Part shown: positions 2,602-45,343 of the stretch, piece by piece
How positions within the stretch are numbered: the first letter of the stretch is position 1
Layout of the letters: each line of letters begins with the position of its first letter
Assembly: GCA_944391745.1 (NCBI GenBank)
Contig: CALXUS010000001.1
Location: forward strand, 81,425-145,424
DNA: 64,000 bases
Source: an uncultured Clostridia bacterium
GTDB taxonomy: Bacteria; Bacillota; Clostridia; TANB77; CAG-508
Direction: 5' to 3'
The notes under the pieces: model-generated
Databases searched by the model: none
The model's input: only the letters and a program-made list of their open reading frames with translations
What the model was told of the DNA's origin: nothing
Position numbers and translations under genes: made by a program

Positions 2602-5319
2602 TTATTTTTGTTTTCTATCATGTTTTGTCTTTATTTTTACTAATGGTTTTAATCCTTTTTCTTTTCTATTGCTATCTATTATTACTAATGCCTTTCTTGT
2701 TATTAAGAAGATTCCGCCTGCTATCATTATTCCTAGGCCTATTTCATATATTTCTTTGGTTCCTAGGCTTCCGCTCGATGGAAATACAAACATTTTTTTA
2801 TTTGGTAATAATAATTCTTTTGAATCTGTTTCTGCTAAAGCTGGTGGATTGCCAATCGCTGTTATTCTTATATTAGTACCATTTATTCTTACAATTGTGT
2901 TATCTTCTGTATCATAATTTCCATATATAAATTCCATTTTCCACTGCCCGTCAGGTATTAATCTATTTCCTGTAGCTTTAGTTTCTACTAATCTATATTC
3001 TTCATTTATTGGTAAGTCTGGTAAAGTTATTTTTCCTGTTTCTGATGTTACATATTCATCTACTAATGTCCAACAATCTTGTGGATTAATTTTATTTATT
3101 AATTCGTCTTTTTCTGATGAGTCTTTATTAGTTAATCTATATAATTTAAATTTTGTATTTGGTAATACTGTTTGATAGTTTTCTTCGGCCACTTTAGTTA
3201 TTGTTATACTTGCAGTTTTTACTTTATAATAATATGTTACTTCTGTATTATCTTGTATATATCCATTAGCATTATTAGGTTCTTCTACTAATTCATATAT
3301 ATCATAATCTATTTTATCTTCTGAAGCTTTACTTGTTGTGTATTCTTCATTTTTTATCAAACCTTCTGTTATTTCGTCTTCTACTACTTTTCCTTCAGTA
3401 CCACCTTTTAATGGAACTTTTACTTCAGTACCCTCCAAATAATGATGTACTGTTAATGTATAGGTCTTTACTTTATAATAGTAATTTACTATTTGTGTTT
3501 CTCCATCTTCATAAGTTCCTATACTATTTTCTGGTATATATGAATCTGTTCCTATTACTCCTTCAGGTAGTTCTTCACTAATTGCATCATAGTATTCTTC
3601 ATTTGTTATTAATACATATTCCAAATCTGTTTTTGGTGAAGTTTCGTAGTTCTCTCCTATTTTTCCTTTTAAATGATCTGTATCTGTTATTGTTGTAGTA
3701 GTTAAGCCATCTTCTTTTGTATAAAGATAATGGTTTACATCTACTTTTCCTATTGTATTTTCAAAAGATACTACGACTTCTTTATTTTCTTTTACATCTT
3801 GAAATTTGTCTAATGTGTAACTACCATCATAATCTGGTTCAAATTCTATTTCTTCACCATTTATAGTTATTGTTTTTATTATATACCCTTCATCTGGTGT
3901 TATTATTATCGGCTTTGTACTATCTTCTCCATATTCTACAATTTCATACGGAGTATCTCCTGCTCCACTAATATTGCCCCCTGTTCCATCAATCTTTGTT
4001 GTTATATTATAAGATTTTATCATGTAATAATAAATTACTTCTACTTCTGTCGATGTTACTATTCCGCTAGCATTTGAAGGAGTTTTGATTAATTCATATT
4101 TTTCGTCTAAATTTTCAGCAGGTTTTGTTTCATAAGAATCCCCTACTTTATATTCGTAACTTTCATCTGGTGCTACTAACTCTTCTGTATTTTCAATATA
4201 ATGATGTACTGTAAGCTGTGCAGGTTCAAATGTTTTTGGTAAGTTAAATTCGATTGTACAGTTTGAACCACCTTGACCACGCTCTAAATAGAATATACTT
4301 AATGTATGTTCTTTTGTTTCATCAGAATATAAATCGTCTCCTATTAAATCGTCTAAATTGGCTATAGTCGTTTCGCTAGATGATCCTCCCCACCATGAGT
4401 TAGTATATCCAATTACTTTTCTAGTAGCGAAATTTATTTCTTGTTCTAATTTATCATGTATTCCACCTAAATCTATTACTAATTTTCCATCGATAAATAC
4501 CCATAAATCATCATCACCTGAAAACCTAAAGATTATATCTTCTGGATTTTCTGTTTTTGTCTTTCCATTAGATGACATATAAAAATTAATCTCTGTTTTT
4601 ACTCCAAAGTGATATATTGCATCTTCACCATTTTTTGAATTAAATGGAAAAAATCCATTTACATTCCTACTTCCCCAAACAGTAGCTTCAGTTGCATTAT
4701 TATATGTATTTTTATTTTCATTTTTTTCTAATTTTACACCACTTTGAGGGATTCCATTTGTAAAGTTTATATCTTCATTATCACTATCCATTATATATGT
4801 ACCATTACCTTGGCTTGTAAATGGCAATAATACATTTTGATAAACTGTTTTCCCTCTATTTGTAGTTTCATCAAATATTCCAATTTCAGGATAATTAAAT
4901 TGTATATTTCCTGATGAATCTAGTTCATTCTTTACCATTCCTGTTGTTTGTGAGCTAGAATAATGATTATATGCCTCACAACTAATTCTACTATTTCCAT
5001 CTATTTCTATTGTATTATTTCCATTTCTATTATTAAAGTATATACCTTGTGTAGAACCTTCTTCTGCTCTTGTTAAACTATTAAATTCATCAGTATTATA
5101 TTTAAACATAGTTACTGGTAAGTATAGTATTTCTCCAGCAGGGTATACTGGTGGTGTATCTGCTAAAGCATCAGTTGTAATATCACTGTTTCTAAATTGT
5201 GAAACAATTGGTAACTCTGATTTGTACACTAAATTTATAATCACTATAACAACTATTATAAAAAAAGCTATTGTAGAAATTTTTAAAGATATTTGTTTTT
5301 TCTTTTTATTATTTCCCAT
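2602..5319 (-). CDS. Cell-surface adhesin-like protein, 905 aa. N-terminal signal/anchor, PA14-like domain (FRFSGDDDLWVFIDGKLVIDLGGIH ... FYLERGQGGS), about 4 MucBP-like repeats (TVHHY...), a Cna-B/prealbumin-like domain, and a C-terminal hydrophobic segment with a basic tail (cell-wall or membrane anchor).
   Basis: ORF-track translation. PA14 and MucBP motifs recognised by eye. C-terminus ...GLGIMIAGGIFLITRKALVI...KTKHDRKQK. Confidence 0.7.
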   Translation of the reverse strand: MGNNKKKKQISLKISTIAFFIIVVIVIINLVYKSELPIVSQFRNSDITTDALADTPPVYPAGEILYLPVTMFKYNTDEFNSLTRAEEGSTQGIYFNNRNGNNTIEIDGNSRISCEAYNHYSSSQTTGMVKNELDSSGNIQFNYPEIGIFDETTNRGKTVYQNVLLPFTSQGNGTYIMDSDNEDINFTNGIPQSGVKLEKNENKNTYNNATEATVWGSRNVNGFFPFNSKNGEDAIYHFGVKTEINFYMSSNGKTKTENPEDIIFRFSGDDDLWVFIDGKLVIDLGGIHDKLEQEINFATRKVIGYTNSWWGGSSSETTIANLDDLIGDDLYSDETKEHTLSIFYLERGQGGSNCTIEFNLPKTFEPAQLTVHHYIENTEELVAPDESYEYKVGDSYETKPAENLDEKYELIKTPSNASGIVTSTEVEVIYYYMIKSYNITTKIDGTGGNISGAGDTPYEIVEYGEDSTKPIIITPDEGYIIKTITINGEEIEFEPDYDGSYTLDKFQDVKENKEVVVSFENTIGKVDVNHYLYTKEDGLTTTTITDTDHLKGKIGENYETSPKTDLEYVLITNEEYYDAISEELPEGVIGTDSYIPENSIGTYEDGETQIVNYYYKVKTYTLTVHHYLEGTEVKVPLKGGTEGKVVEDEITEGLIKNEEYTTSKASEDKIDYDIYELVEEPNNANGYIQDNTEVTYYYKVKTASITITKVAEENYQTVLPNTKFKLYRLTNKDSSEKDELINKINPQDCWTLVDEYVTSETGKITLPDLPINEEYRLVETKATGNRLIPDGQWKMEFIYGNYDTEDNTIVRINGTNIRITAIGNPPALAETDSKELLLPNKKMFVFPSSGSLGTKEIYEIGLGIMIAGGIFLITRKALVIIDSNRKEKGLKPLVKIKTKHDRKQK

Positions 5320-12155: not shown

Positions 12156-12813
12156 ATTTTCTATTGTCTATTCTTCTTTCAGCCTCAAGGGTTGTATCTT
12201 CTTTTGTTGTTTCTGAATATATATTTATTGGAATAGATTCTAATAAATTTTCATTTTTATAATATTCAATTAATGGTTCTGTATTTTCATGATATACTTC
12301 AAGTCTTTGTTTGATTGTTTCTGGTTCGTCATCTTTTCTTTTTATTAATGGAGAACCACATCTGTCACATATTCCTTCAACCTTTGGAGGCATAAATACT
12401 GTATTATATGATGCTCCACATTCTTTATTTGAGCAAATTACTCTGCTTGATGTTCTTGTAATTATATCCTTATCTGGAACGTCTAAGTTTATTACTGCTG
12501 TTATCTTTTTACCTTTAGATTCTAAATATTTATCTAAAGCTTCTGCTTGTGGTATTGTTCTTGGGAATCCATCTAATAATACATTTTCAAGTTTATCTAG
12601 TTTTCCTTCTACCATAGCTATTGTTACTTCATCTGGTACTAGATTTCCTTTAGATATATATTCTTCAGCTTTTTTACCAAGTTCTGTTTGCCTTTTCATT
12701 TCATCTCTGAAAATATCTCCTGTTGCTAAATGTACTAAATTAAATTTATCACATATCTCATTTCCTATTGTTCCTTTTCCGCTTCCTGGAGCACCTAACA
12801 TTATTATATACAT
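12154..12813 (-). CDS. adk: Adenylate kinase (long type, with zinc-finger lid CxxC...CxxC)
   Basis: Start MYIIMLGAPGSGKGT (P-loop). Lid cysteines CSNKEC...CDRC. Confidence 0.92.
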   Translation of the reverse strand: MYIIMLGAPGSGKGTIGNEICDKFNLVHLATGDIFRDEMKRQTELGKKAEEYISKGNLVPDEVTIAMVEGKLDKLENVLLDGFPRTIPQAEALDKYLESKGKKITAVINLDVPDKDIITRTSSRVICSNKECGASYNTVFMPPKVEGICDRCGSPLIKRKDDEPETIKQRLEVYHENTEPLIEYYKNENLLESIPINIYSETTKEDTTLEAERRIDNRK

Positions 12814-13126
12814 ATTCTTTCTTCCTTTCATTTAATTTACTCTTAATTGTATTATTACTATTATTTTTTATAAAGTTTTCATTTCGCATTTTATATTTTA
12901 GTACTTTTTTTTGTGTTTGTCAATTGTATATTTTTCAAGTCTTGTTTGCTTTCTTGTTCGCATATTTTTCTAGATTCTTTCTATTTTTATTTGAGGTACT
13001 AAGCTTTTGCATTACTAAAAATTTGCTTTTTTTTGTAATTTATGATATAATTATTTAAATCGGATCGTCTGATTATTCCTTCCTCTTGGATGGAATTCGG
13101 CACATTGAAAAAAGGAGCGTAAAAAA

Positions 13127-13552
13127 ATGAAAAAAACTTACATCAGCAAGACCCTCGTTACCGTAATTGTCATGATTGTCGCAATTGTATGCGTCAGCAT
13201 CCATATGTTCGACAATCGCATCACGGCATTTGATGAGGGAACTTACACCCGGGTTGTCTACTCCAATGGAACGTGGAAAGCTTATGACACTGTTACCACC
13301 AGTGTTGATTACGAGTACCGCGTCAGTTCAGAACAAGTAAAGGACTTCATCGAAAATGCAGTGTTAAAGGCAAATGGTGATGTTAAAATCACCGCTCGAG
13401 CAAACGGTATGGACTTGATTGTCTATGTTGAAGGCAGTAAATTTTCTGACAGTCAATACTTTAAAGCTCGTTTCATCGATTTGATTCTCAACCCTTACGC
13501 ATTTGATGTGCGGGATGCAATTAGAGATGTAAGCTCTGCAACCCAAGTTTAA
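13127..13552 (+). CDS. Hypothetical membrane-anchored protein (141 aa), encoded on a GC-rich insertion inside the ribosomal superoperon
   Basis: Strong RBS aaaaaggagcg. N-terminal TM. Codons such as ccg, cgc, cgg that are rare elsewhere in the window. Own terminator downstream. Confidence 0.6.
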   Translation: MKKTYISKTLVTVIVMIVAIVCVSIHMFDNRITAFDEGTYTRVVYSNGTWKAYDTVTTSVDYEYRVSSEQVKDFIENAVLKANGDVKITARANGMDLIVYVEGSKFSDSQYFKARFIDLILNPYAFDVRDAIRDVSSATQV

Positions 13553-13562
13553 ATGTGTCGAT

Positions 13563-13616
13563 AGGCTTTCACTTCTTTCCAATAATTTGGAACTGGTGAA
13601 AGCCTGTCGTTTTTAT
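13563..13616 (+). terminator. Intrinsic terminator of the inserted gene
   Basis: aggctttcac ... gtgaaagcct, followed by gtcgttttta. Confidence 0.6.
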
Positions 13617-13732
13617 TTATTAATTTAAGTATTAGATATTTCTTATTTTCAATAATATTTTATCTATAAAATTTAAAATTCTTTTATAAAAAAATGAACT
13701 TCAAGGAGTATCCCCAAAGTTCAAATTATAGT

Positions 13733-17557: not shown

Positions 17558-17956
17558 TTACCAAACATAAGCTAAAACTTCTCCACCTAAACCTTCTTTT
17601 CTAGCTTCTTTATCTGTTTTTATTCCTTTAGATGTTGAAATTAATGCTATACCTAAACCATTTAATACTTGTGGTAATTCATCTTTGTTAACATATATTC
17701 TTAAACCTGGTTTACTAATTCTTTTTAAACCATCTATTACTCTTTTTCCGTTTTCATCGTATTTTAGAGTAATTCTTAACATTCCTTGTTTTTCATCTTT
17801 TATTTCTTCAAAAGATGCTATATATCCTTCATCAAGTAAGATTTGAGCTATAGCTCTTTTCATATTTGATGCTGGAACGTCAACTTCCTTATGTTTAGCA
17901 CTATTTGCATTTCTTATTCTTGTTAGCATATCTGCTATTGGGTCTGTTGTATTCAA
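17558..17956 (-). CDS. rpsH: 30S ribosomal protein S8
   Basis: 132 aa, canonical. Confidence 0.95.
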
Positions 17957-31621: not shown

Positions 31622-31696
31622 AGGGGTATGATGTTAATGGTAGCATTCCGGTCTCCAAAACCGTGCGTGAGGGTTCAAATCCTTCTACCCCTGCCA
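31622..31696 (+). tRNA. tRNA-Trp (anticodon CCA), with encoded CCA end
   Basis: 7-bp acceptor stem aggggta/tacccct. Anticodon loop cuCCAaa. T-loop GGTTCAAATCC. Confidence 0.85.
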
Positions 31697-31728
31697 AATT
31701 TGTGGGAGCATTAAAGATAGGAGTTTTT

Positions 31729-32320
31729 ATGGTTAAATTCTTTTCTAAATGCTTTCTTTTTTTATTTATTTTTATTTTAGTTTTATCCATATTTTCAGTA
31801 TCATTTTTTTACTCTTCTATTCCTGTAAATTCTGATGAATACTTTGAACAACTAGTATTATCCAATGATGGCTTTTTTTGGCCATTGCCTGGTTATTATT
31901 ATATTTCTTCTTACTTTGGAAAACGTGAATCGCCAACTTCTGGTGCATCTACTTATCATTCTGGTATTGATATTCCTGCATCTAATGGAACTAATATATA
32001 TGCTATTGAAAGTGGTACCATTACTTTTGCTAGCTGGGGCGCTGGCGGGCGGGTATACCATTGTGTTAAAGTTAGATAATCCTAGTAATATTTCTGTTTC
32101 CTATTGCCATTTGTCGCCTAATTACATAGTAAATAGAAATGACCATGTTGAAAAAGCTGAACTAATAGGCTTTGTTGGTCCCAAAAATGTGTATGGAATA
32201 AATAATAATCCATATAAAGATTCTGAAGGGAAACCGACAAATGGTGCAACAACGGGTAGTCATTTGCATTTAACAATTAAAGTAAATAATTTACCTGTTA
32301 ATCCTCTAAATTTCTTTTAA
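31729..32320 (+). pseudogene. M23 family metallopeptidase (signal-anchored), broken by a +1 frameshift in a G-run at about 32047-32053
   Basis: N-terminal half in one frame (FWPLPGYYYISSYFG...HSGIDIPASNGTNIYA...FASWGAGG). C-terminal half (YTIVLKLDNP...HLHLTIKVNNLPVNPL) is in the +1 frame. Confidence 0.65.
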
Positions 32321-32368: not shown

Positions 32369-33070
32369 TTACATATCATCTTCATTTTCATTATTTTGAA
32401 TATTAGAATTGTTTTGATTGTCGTTCAAATCTTGATTTTGCTGTTTTTTCTTTTTAGATGTATTTTTCGTTGTGTTCTTATTTTCATCTTGAACTTTTTT
32501 TGAATTGTTTTCGTCTTTATATTCATTTTCTTCTTCTTTTAATACATCTGATTCTAATTTTTTATCATAGCAAATGTTATCACAATGACCACATTCACCA
32601 TCGCAATAATCATCCCAATCAAGTTCAATTTCTTTATGACATTTTGGACATTCTATAATATCTTTTAAATTTGCCTCCGGACCTATTACAAATTCATAAT
32701 TGCAATAAGGACATTTTATTTCAAAATCATAGTCATCATAACTGATATTTAATTCATTGTCATGCATTTGATCACCTATTTTGTCATAGATGTTCTCTTT
32801 ATCATCTTTCTCTTCATCTTCATCAATATAAATGTCAGCTTCTATTTTCTCTATAGACTTTTGAAGTTTTTCAACCTTATTGTATAAATCTTCATAAGCC
32901 CCATTATTAGTTTCTACATTTTTATTGTTCATGTCTATAAACATCATGCAAACTTCTAAGATTTTGTTTTTTGCAATTTCCAAATCCTTTGGATCTTTAA
33001 TTTCTTTTTCTAGTTCACCTAGAATTTTAGCAAATTTATCTCTTTTATCTATCATAGAATCTCCTTTCAC
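32369..33070 (-). CDS. Hypothetical acidic protein with double CxxC zinc-ribbon motifs and an N/Q/K-rich tail
   Basis: 233 aa. CPYC...CPKC...CDGECGHCDNIC. Confidence 0.5.
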   Translation of the reverse strand: MKGDSMIDKRDKFAKILGELEKEIKDPKDLEIAKNKILEVCMMFIDMNNKNVETNNGAYEDLYNKVEKLQKSIEKIEADIYIDEDEEKDDKENIYDKIGDQMHDNELNISYDDYDFEIKCPYCNYEFVIGPEANLKDIIECPKCHKEIELDWDDYCDGECGHCDNICYDKKLESDVLKEEENEYKDENNSKKVQDENKNTTKNTSKKKKQQNQDLNDNQNNSNIQNNENEDDM

Positions 33071-43407: not shown

Positions 43408-44286
43408 ATGAATGATAATGATGTATTAAATTTAGTAAATAATAACCATGAAAGAGCAGTTTGGGAAAGAAATAATAGATTAAGAAGAAACTATCCTGTA
43501 CAAGATCCTGTTTTACCTAAAAAGCCTTATACTCTAAAAAAATATAAAAGCAAATCTAGATTATCTAAAATGCATCCTCATTTAAAAAAATCTCTAATTT
43601 TTCTTTTATCTGCTGCTATGGGGGTAGGTGTTCTTACTTATAAAGCTCCTGATATTTTGCAGACTATTTCTCAAGCAAGAACTGCAATTTCAGATATTTT
43701 TACATCAGATTCTAAAGACTCAGAAAGTTTAGGATATGAATATTATTCTGAGGATTTTCCTGAACTAAGATCTCTTAATAATAATTATAAATATATTACT
43801 GAAGAAGTAAAACCAGATGAAGCTTATGGACACACTAGAGGTTTAATACTTATTTATGATGATGTTGCTAACAACATAGTATTTACTAAAGTTGCTAATG
43901 CATATAATAAATATTTTGCACAAAAAGGTGAAGATAAATCTCTTTCACCTGATGATTTAAATTTCGGTTATAATAAAAATGATGATTCATATTATATATA
44001 TACTGACAAAACTGGAACAAAATTAAATTTAGGAAATAATGCAGTAATTTCTGATTATGCTAAATCTAGTAAAGAAATGATAAATACATTATCTGGATAT
44101 GAAGTGTCAACTAATTTACAGCTTCAATATTTGCAAGATAATTTAGCGAAATTAAATAACATTGCTAATTCAGAAATTCAATTTGAAGAAAATGAAAAAG
44201 GAGATTTATCATTTAGTGTTAATTCTCCTGAGCAAGAACAGGATGGTAATACATTAAATAATGAAGAAGAAGATTTAGAATTATAA
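43408..44286 (+). CDS. Hypothetical N-terminally anchored protein
   Basis: 292 aa. TM at about residues 62-80. Confidence 0.5.
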   Translation: MNDNDVLNLVNNNHERAVWERNNRLRRNYPVQDPVLPKKPYTLKKYKSKSRLSKMHPHLKKSLIFLLSAAMGVGVLTYKAPDILQTISQARTAISDIFTSDSKDSESLGYEYYSEDFPELRSLNNNYKYITEEVKPDEAYGHTRGLILIYDDVANNIVFTKVANAYNKYFAQKGEDKSLSPDDLNFGYNKNDDSYYIYTDKTGTKLNLGNNAVISDYAKSSKEMINTLSGYEVSTNLQLQYLQDNLAKLNNIANSEIQFEENEKGDLSFSVNSPEQEQDGNTLNNEEEDLEL

Positions 44287-44291
44287 TTTAT

Positions 44292-44343
44292 AAAAACAGG
44301 AAAAGGGGCGGCTACAAAGGTAACCTCCCCTTTTCCTGTTTCC
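44292..44343. terminator. Bidirectional intrinsic terminator (14-bp stem aacaggaaaagggg/ccccttttcctgtt)
   Basis: Perfect long GC-containing inverted repeat between convergent genes. Confidence 0.65.
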
Positions 44344-44363
44344 TTATTTAGGAATCAGATACT

Positions 44364-44888
44364 TTAAGCGACAGAATAAATCCTCATCAACTTCCTTCCC
44401 GTCTCACGACTTTCTTCTTTATCAATCTTGATAGTCTCGTTAACCACCTTAACTACCAAATTGCCATGTTGAACCAATGGTTCCCAGCCATCATTTTCAA
44501 CATCGGAATGAGAAGCTTTTTGGATTTCCCAGACATCAACATCCGGAACGGGTTTTGCCTCTTTTTCTACATACTGATTGAAAAAGTCAATCAGTACAGG
44601 ACGAATTGTGTCGTCCTTAAGAGCCTTAAACAAAAGGAAACTCCTTCCATCGTCCGTTTCGTTTTTGTTTCGAACGTAAATATTTTTGAGTTGCCCCCTT
44701 GTCAAGGTCAGATAATCAAGCATTTTTCCAATGCCTTCAGGCTCTTTGTTCAAGTTTTCCCTCTCGCTGTCAGTGAGCTTACGCATTTTGCGTTTTCTTG
44801 CGTAAACTGTAACATTGGTAGGTTTTTTCTTGACAAAACCTAATTCCTCTGCTGCCTTCCGTTTTACCGTATTGAAGAATGTAGCCAT
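44364..44888 (-). CDS. Hypothetical basic/acidic 174-aa protein encoded on a second GC-rich (foreign-looking) segment
   Basis: Markedly higher G+C and GC-rich codons compared with the flanks. Stand-alone gene with a terminator. Confidence 0.55.
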   Translation of the reverse strand: MATFFNTVKRKAAEELGFVKKKPTNVTVYARKRKMRKLTDSERENLNKEPEGIGKMLDYLTLTRGQLKNIYVRNKNETDDGRSFLLFKALKDDTIRPVLIDFFNQYVEKEAKPVPDVDVWEIQKASHSDVENDGWEPLVQHGNLVVKVVNETIKIDKEESRETGRKLMRIYSVA

Positions 44889-45037
44889 CCTTCATCACTC
44901 CCTTCAGTAAAGTATCTTATCTATTATACCACTATTAACATAAAAAATCAACCAATAAGTAAAATTTACTTATTGGTTTAATAAATTTTCATTTCATTAC
45001 CCCTTAAATGTAGTATTTACTTACTGGTTGATATTTA

Positions 45038-45343
45038 TTATTCTTCTGAACTTGTAGCTTCAGCTTCTGGCTTTGCTTCAGGTTCAGGGGTATTATTGTA
45101 TACTTCTAATATAGCTTTTTGGATTTTTTCTCTAGTAGCAGGATTTATAGGATGTGCTATATCCTTATGTTCTCCAGTGCTCTTAATCTTTTTGCTAGGC
45201 ATAGCAATAAATAATACTCCTTCAGGATTTTTGATAACTTTGATTTCATGTACTACGAATTCGTTATCAAATGTTACAGATGCAACAGCTTTTAATCTGT
45301 TCTCTGAATTTACTTTTCTTAATCTTACGTCTGTTATTTCCAT
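45038..45343 (-). CDS. spoVG: Septation protein SpoVG
   Basis: Conserved start [11 protein letters not shown] at the ATG 45343 (RBS ggagaac). The ORF-track 5' extension is unlikely. Confidence 0.9.

Follow-up and report, generated by a model that had tools for sequence, protein, structure and literature searches.

In A+T-rich genomes, G+C-rich islands often mark RNA genes, and the vls locus of Borrelia, an antigenic-variation locus, is both G+C-rich and variable in a genome of 28% G+C. A G+C content and codon usage that depart from the host are routinely taken to prove a recent horizontal transfer; the gene described here carries the same signal and is syntenic across species. According to a large survey, orphan genes of gut bacteria normally have a host-like G+C content, and the virus-like ones a lower one (PMC11293555). 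Since gut orphan genes normally match their host in this way, the present family is unusual, its gene lying about 12 G+C points above the host. We found no description of this locus, or of such a phenomenon, in the literature.

The window, that is the whole 64-kb stretch of DNA analysed here (64,000 nucleotides from an uncultured Clostridia bacterium), carries this gene between spoVG and a convergent gene for a membrane protein. We refer to the gene of the window as X174, to its homologues in related genomes as versions of X, and to the related loci by L numbers.

The G+C-rich unit beside spoVG

The unit and its immediate surroundings comprise the following features, in window coordinates.

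43408..44286, plus strand: convergent 292-aa gene encoding a single-pass membrane protein (GC3 0.09; 25-69% identity between species)
44294..44341, unstranded: G+C-rich hairpin between the convergent X174 and 292-aa genes (inverted repeat, folding energy)
44364..44888, minus strand: X174 coding sequence, 174 aa (open reading frame; GC3 0.417; family search, alignment, AlphaFold2 model, dN/dS)
44873..44894, minus strand: predicted start-codon hairpin, UGAAGGAUG-GCUA-CAUUCUUCA (folds; covariation across seven versions)
44923..44951, minus strand: sigma-A-type X promoter with an extended -10 element (TTGATT, 17 nt, TGgTATAAT; promoter scan with 10/12 matches plus the TG; motif search)
44950..44978, minus strand: intrinsic terminator hairpin of spoVG (AACCAATAAGTAAA / TTTACTTATTGGTT, then a T-run; inverted-repeat search, upstream regions)
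45038..45343, minus strand: spoVG, the conserved upstream anchor of the slot (Pfam SpoVG, E = 7.8e-33; 90-100% identity in close relatives)

The G+C content of region 44290-44900 is 40.6%, compared with 28.5% for the window. Read in steps of 100 bp, its borders are sharp, with a rise of G+C from 0.26 to 0.42 at about 44300 and a drop to 0.21 at about 44900. The X174 coding sequence itself has 40.4% G+C, its left neighbour 26.2% and spoVG 31.1%. The G+C-rich stretch is exactly the X transcription unit. A second islet of the window, at 13059-13620 between adk and secY, has 40.7% G+C and is part of a longer insertion.

12924..13690, plus strand: adk-secY islet, an insertion of about 760 bp between the secY terminator and the adk promoter (empty site in relatives)
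13023-13051, plus strand: promoter of the islet
13127-13552, plus strand: 141-aa membrane-anchored open reading frame of the islet
13559-13609, plus strand: terminator hairpin of the islet

Over 66 open reading frames of the window, GC3 averaged 0.148 (sd 0.066), and the sole outliers were the genes of the two islets (0.417 for X174, 0.451 for the adk-secY islet gene). Codon choice departs from that of the host in the same direction in both: ATA makes up none of the Ile codons in either gene, compared with 0.60 in host genes, the AGA share of Arg codons is 0.08 in X174 and 0.14 in the adk-secY islet gene (host genes 0.88), and the TTA share of Leu codons is 0.07 and 0.20, respectively (host genes 0.65). 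The first-pass annotation had described 44290-44900 as compositionally foreign and as similar to the adk-secY islet in G+C and codons. Our comparison of codon usage and GC3 between both islet genes and the window's reading frames bears out the two statements, with both genes as outliers and a composition that is not uniform, and the two promoters are alike in type as well. The property extends beyond the window: all X versions, remote homologues included, have a G+C of 0.35-0.47 and a GC3 of 0.38-0.57, in genomes of 26-30% G+C. The GC3 of the convergent membrane-protein gene, which is exchanged together with X, is 0.09-0.16.

On the spoVG side, the -35 element of the X promoter overlaps the 3' arm and the T-tract of the spoVG terminator. 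In the upstream regions of 11 loci, this terminator and the overlapping promoter (TTGATTTTTTATGTAAAnTnTGnTATAAT then AGATAAGATAC) were nearly invariant between species, and the divergence between X loci began in the 5'UTR. The spoVG terminator is conserved host sequence and forms the spoVG-side border of the variable segment. The sequence 3' of spoVG shows some further structure: at 44943-45036 hairpins are nested, with an outer 21-nt pair (44943-44963 with 45016-45036) around the perfect 14-bp terminator hairpin, and between species a variable insert of 0-110 nt lies between the conserved left arm ATCAACCAGTAAG and the terminator, L015 representing the minimal form without insert.

On the side of the membrane-protein gene, the G+C-rich stretch ends at the hairpin 44294-44341. 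Its 22-nt arms (44294-44315 and 44320-44341) are 91% complementary, with the first 15 bp perfect, and its predicted energy is -36.1 kcal/mol (z = -7.15 against shuffles). Other X versions have differing hairpin sequences at this position. Since T-rich tracts flank it on both strands (TTTTTAT on the minus strand, TTTCCTTATTT on the plus strand) and the two genes converge on it, the hairpin is a plausible bidirectional terminator. The perfect hairpin reported in the first-pass annotation is thus present, and its further reading as a strong bidirectional terminator is plausible from the sequence; we consider the element to be probably a bidirectional intrinsic terminator.

A resident slot with exchangeable versions

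We sampled synteny by a MurC scan with one genome per species, which gave 80 loci; all come from uncultured Clostridia that live in the gut of humans, rabbits or ruminants. Loci with a MurC 85-94% identical had a common gene order (murC, spoVG, X, convergent membrane-protein gene, uppP, mntP), and the open reading frame at the X position was just 25-36% identical to X174. Divergent homologues filled the slot in L011-L016, L032, L091, L094, L097 and L119-L123, and remote homologues in L022, L024 and L025, from species with a MurC 77-78% identical; hhalign aligned these remote reading frames to X with E = 5e-5 over 97 columns and a probability of 68%. The slot was empty in L021 and L029 only, and was occupied by an unrelated A+T-rich gene in L020 and L028. 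All family members with fetched contigs sit in the slot after spoVG.

Looking for terminal repeats (inverted or direct) and for target duplications at X174, we obtained short matches at chance level only, and no att-like sites or mobility genes were found at the locus. Likewise, we did not find X relatives in phages and plasmids (blastn, tblastn), nor any match in viral contigs scanned for the X protein and the promoter motif. The first-pass annotation had proposed X174 as a recent single-gene insertion of mobile-element origin. This proposal does not hold, as the same slot is filled in sister species and homologues sought in phages, plasmids and viral contigs gave none. Conserved syntenic presence, which that annotation had itself held to speak against its reading, is what we observed for X174, in the form of divergent homologues behind a conserved promoter. 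Gene order and homology show X174 to be a resident hypervariable gene, not one that was imported once and recently.

In more distant relatives, the spoVG-adjacent slot contains other G+C-rich small genes of unrelated families, some of them convergent on spoVG. Their folding z-scores are between -2.3 and -4.9, and the genes are listed here.

L039 8961-9392: G+C-rich small gene
L045 9005-9397: G+C-rich small gene
L046 7254-7643: G+C-rich small gene
L078 8899-9315: G+C-rich small gene

Judged by its homologues, X174 is one species' version of a small, fast-changing and clade-restricted protein family. An exhaustive HMMER search of 1.84 billion representatives retrieved 10 proteins, 30-42% identical to X174, which align to it over the whole length and share the motifs MATFxNT, GLTKxQxKNIYFRN, PDLDVWEI and YMRIY. 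Profile searching added same-slot members only, and a word-indexed search of 5.8 billion protein clusters returned X174 alone. All members detected among about 15 billion proteins belong to A+T-rich genomes. X174 was seen on 31 contigs, and its context was identical in 23 of the 23 contigs read. The earlier description of the product as 174 aa long with a basic N-terminal part was correct; in the alignment, the basic stretch is an insertion specific to the X174 version.

We did not detect any significant match for X174, its neighbour or the other islet proteins in the family and structure searches (Pfam, NCBIfam, PHROGs, PADLOC and a PDB profile search). AlphaFold2 with the 10-sequence alignment returned an alpha/beta model with a pLDDT of 90.1 and a pTM of 0.81, while the single X174 sequence gave a pLDDT of 44, and Foldseek with the model retrieved nothing similar in PDB or BFVD. 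The dN/dS of X was about 0.3 in three pairs. Based on this ratio, the conserved motifs and the confident AlphaFold2 model, we conclude that X is a real protein-coding family. The model suggests a soluble alpha/beta protein without detectable relatives, and the family is new and previously undescribed, with a fold that is confidently predicted and unmatched among solved and viral structures.

We found that X versions are 24-69% identical to each other while UppP is 88-100% identical. The convergent membrane protein, for which neither Pfam nor any other family gave a match, is hypervariable as well (25-69% between species): a short N-terminal motif, DVLNLVN..H, is conserved and the remainder is highly variable. 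Loci L032 and L094 are 99-100% identical over 3.8 kb, apart from a block of 1.65 kb that begins in the X 5'UTR and reaches into the membrane-protein gene; within it, X is 26% identical. The X of L094 is 69% identical to that of L091, from another species (UppP 91%), and 26% identical to that of L032 (UppP 100%). The X tree disagrees with the flanking genes, and most of the 292-aa gene is exchanged together with X. Since the flanks of L032 and L094 are near-identical and the X of L094 is closest to that of L091, we conclude that X versions are swapped as a block; homologous recombination in the conserved flanks is the apparent route. Such block exchange, from the X 5'UTR into the membrane-protein gene, is the reason why near-identical genomes can carry X versions that are 26% identical.

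In the pair L091/L094, the dS of X (0.75) matches that of the flanks (0.42-0.87), which indicates that X has diverged in place here; its GC3 is still 0.42-0.47. Within-species diversity is about 0.1% with one SNP in X, too few for a mutation spectrum. We also noticed that many independent metagenome contigs (L004-L010, L091, L094, L097) start within the 3' end of spoVG, at 200-290 bp upstream of X; such breaks fit assembly graphs that branch where conserved sequence meets the hypervariable block.

Because of the hypervariability and the allele swapping, we propose a conflict-type role for X. By analogy, and as a conjecture, its function is probably conflict or recognition, such as phage defence, immunity or self/non-self discrimination. 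Since allele swapping is typical of conflict systems, X would be worth testing for phage defence and strain discrimination.

mRNA structure and the origin of the G+C-richness

Without its terminator, the X174 mRNA folds with a predicted energy of -170.9 kcal/mol, compared with -133.0 +/- 6.6 kcal/mol in dinucleotide shuffles (z = -5.75). The folding z was -1.8 to -7.4 in ten X versions and -1.75 to -6.7 in six more slot genes, with a mean of about -4.7 for the sixteen, and the antisense strands were less extreme in 7 of 8 cases. Over 59 open reading frames of the window, the mean was -1.58 (sd 1.77) and X174 ranked second lowest. The structure signal is not unique to X, since some host genes reach z values of -3 to -6, among them ribosomal-protein genes and spoVG at -3 to -4. 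Two host reading frames match X174 in folding z, 32369-33070 (-6.7), which encodes an acidic, low-complexity protein with CxxC pairs, and 17558-17956 (-6.1).

What the X versions have in common is the degree of structure and the hairpin at the start codon, not one fold: divergent versions are predicted to fold differently along the coding body, and outside the start hairpin RNAalifold gave a weak consensus. The 5' arm of this hairpin consists of the spacer after the Shine-Dalgarno sequence plus the AUG, and the 3' arm of codons 3-5; in the predicted folds of X mRNAs, the AUG is paired in a stem of 7-10 bp. Across the seven versions of the same geometry, from whose sequences the structure was also derived, 92% of the cells were paired versus 77% in shuffles, and 0 of 500 shuffles were as good. 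Compensatory changes occur in five of the nine pairs, and slid registers are 35-52% paired. In MVFANT-type versions, the AUG is buried in a differently built hairpin with one compensatory pair. The start hairpin is thus a predicted start-codon-sequestering element that appears to be kept by compensatory changes. Searches against Rfam gave sub-threshold matches to the hairpin only in the X region, and tRNA-Trp alone in the whole window. Next to this tRNA, an M23 peptidase gene appears split into two overlapping frames (31663-32079 and 31865-32320), by a frameshift that makes it a pseudogene or by a sequencing error.

Considering these results together, we regard it as fairly probable that X174 represents, in this species, a resident hypervariable gene that is restricted to the lineage and whose G+C-richness is maintained, with selection on the mRNA as the likeliest cause. 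The gene would be transcribed from its own near-consensus extended -10 promoter, with a start at about 44915, and the transcript would end at the hairpin shared with the membrane-protein gene. We infer that the G+C-richness is a maintained property rather than a sign of recent import, and that it most likely stems from selection on the structure of the X mRNA. The buried start codon would throttle translation or make it conditional, and the message would be long-lived. Parsimony-polarised third-position changes in X were 28 AT-to-GC versus 14 GC-to-AT; since parsimony is unreliable at such divergence (at a dS of about 0.7, parallel GC-to-AT losses can mimic AT-to-GC gains), we take these counts only as no sign of amelioration.

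In principle, X versions might instead come from a mid-G+C pool outside the sampled genomes and be imported from it again and again. The slot would then be an old hot spot, repeatedly refilled from that reservoir, and each version in it would be young. Allele replacement and tree incongruence, both shown above, would agree with this, as would the spread of GC3 between versions (0.32-0.57), which differing residence times would give, and the G+C-rich single genes of unrelated families that fill the X slot and other slots in relatives. However, no family member lies outside A+T-rich genomes among those about 15 billion proteins, and an A+T-rich partner gene is exchanged along with X, so that the exchange pool would be the A+T-rich clade itself. 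Moreover, the design of promoter and start hairpin is conserved, and the X of L091 and L094 diverged in step with its flanks. We therefore consider repeated import improbable, while giving it some weight.

The locus recombines, and its third-position changes lean towards G+C (the 28 versus 14 given above), so G+C-biased gene conversion at a recombination hot spot, or another mutation bias of this site, might also raise G+C with no need for selection on the RNA. Yet the adjacent gene is co-exchanged and equally variable and keeps a GC3 of 0.09-0.16; since this co-swapped neighbour is A+T-rich, recombination as such does not raise G+C. In addition, the limits of the G+C-rich stretch are exactly those of the X transcription unit, and the excess structure and the covarying hairpin would be left unexplained. 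We regard such a bias as an unlikely cause.

Very unlikely, in our view, is a recent single-gene horizontal acquisition, with X174 as a phage or plasmid remnant that is not yet host-like. The G+C and codon usage are indeed typical of a Firmicute of 40-45% G+C, the protein is an ORFan, and the adk-secY islet does behave in this way. Against it stand the same-slot homologues behind a conserved promoter in many species, the lack of mobile-element matches, repeats, att-like sites or mobility genes, and the pair in which X diverged in step with its flanks (dS 0.75). Finally, that the stretch is a large structured non-coding RNA, with the reading frame a by-product of few stops in G+C-rich sequence, has strong predicted structure on the sense strand in its favour and is hardly credible given peptide motifs kept across versions very different in nucleotides, a dN/dS of about 0.3, an AlphaFold2 pLDDT of 90 from 10 sequences, the presence of a Shine-Dalgarno sequence and a start codon, and the lack of any Rfam family at threshold or shared coding-body fold.

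The adk-secY islet has a different history. In relatives with an Adk 81-96% identical, the secY-adk spacer is empty (116-214 bp, with the secY terminator and the adk promoter only), and relatives of the 141-aa protein all have at least 96% identity. In a second species with the islet (L126 1950-3691), the block 12540-13700 is 96-100% identical at the nucleotide level and core genes are 84-94% identical, which indicates a recent passage of the islet between species, through recombination in its flanks. The differences between the two species cluster in the C-terminal half of the gene (13335-13511), and close to the 5' end of adk the second species carries 45 additional bases. For the mRNA of this islet, the folding z is unremarkable (-1.2 to -2.1). 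Of the two recent imports that the first-pass annotation had seen in the window, the adk-secY islet therefore stands, by its empty site in most relatives and its recent sharing, and X174 with its syntenic homologues does not. The two islets do not share a history, and a common donor for both is unsupported.

A common class for both islets is plausible; in each, a promoter, a gene and a hairpin form a self-contained unit. The 29-nt promoter pattern TTGNTTTTTTNTGTAANTTATGNTATAAT, derived post hoc from the adk-secY islet and an X promoter, matched only the two islet promoters in the 64-kb window with up to 3 mismatches, where shuffles expect none. In 1.49 Mb of related loci, it matched X-slot promoters, one islet of L068 and two ordinary sites. 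This G+C-rich single-gene islet, of the same promoter type, lies directly downstream of murC in L068 (11489-11960) and L067 (11500-11960), the two having a common 5'UTR ATCTCTCGTAGGTATAGCGAGTTAAACAATTATACCAC, homologous proteins of 94-106 aa and a G+C-rich hairpin terminator. TRTGnTATAAT promoters and terminators formed by G+C-rich hairpins also occur at other G+C-rich single-gene islets of relatives. A more distant relative (L102 3307-4001) has a 693-bp secY-adk spacer with moderately raised G+C and a different 96-aa reading frame (3492-3782); because of this different reading frame, the spacer may be a recurrent insertion slot.

More tentatively, and as a possibility that we hold to be rather less than even, the clade may maintain free-standing single-gene units for clade-restricted, fast-diversifying small proteins, with a non-host composition that is actively selected. 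Such units may combine a strong extended -10 promoter, a G+C-rich structured mRNA with a buried start codon and a G+C-rich terminator, and the selected composition may provide, for example, messages that resist RNases or are translated conditionally, as part of a conflict with phages or between strains.

Relation to known systems

The protein sequence of X changes very fast, yet the gene has apparently retained its odd composition. Should selection act on this composition, for instance by way of mRNA structure or controlled translation, X would be a clear counter-example to amelioration-based dating and would offer a handle on post-transcriptional control in uncultured gut Clostridia. If this is true, a "foreign" composition would be a functional trait of native genes and not the fading footprint of a transfer.

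Horizontally acquired islets and ORFans, as considered under the amelioration model of Lawrence and Ochman, resemble X in their atypical composition and in the taxonomic restriction of the family. The adk-secY islet fits this class well. Unlike such islets, X is syntenic across species, lacks mobile-element relatives and shows no sign of amelioration.

Polymorphic toxin/immunity pairs were considered because a neighbour with a conserved N-terminus and a variable C-terminus lies beside a small, very variable cytosolic protein, and the two are swapped together. We rejected this assignment, as the genes converge and are not in tandem, and Pfam and PADLOC detected no toxin or trafficking domain. 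The covariation is also imperfect, unlike in such pairs: L032 and L091 share 69% in the neighbour and 27% in X.

With RNA thermometers and the folded mRNAs of type I toxins, X shares, in its predicted folds, a paired AUG, a stem kept by compensation and a highly structured mRNA. In contrast to these start-burying hairpins, the structuring spans the whole X coding region, and in contrast to type I toxin-antitoxin systems, X has no antisense RNA or small hydrophobic toxin, its protein being 120-190 aa long.

The arrangement of the locus recalls capsule/O-antigen loci and the comQXP and agr pherotype loci. As in these, the flanks are conserved and deeply divergent versions are shared across species, and the block is replaced within one species, with a tree discordant with the flanks. 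The X unit differs in comprising one small cytosolic protein and part of a membrane protein, with one gene persistently G+C-rich and the other host-like.

The vls locus of Borrelia, finally, differs in mechanism, as the window contains no silent cassettes or repeats and X varies between strains and species by allele replacement, not within the cell. Like vls, X is a persistently G+C-rich and highly variable coding locus in a very A+T-rich genome.
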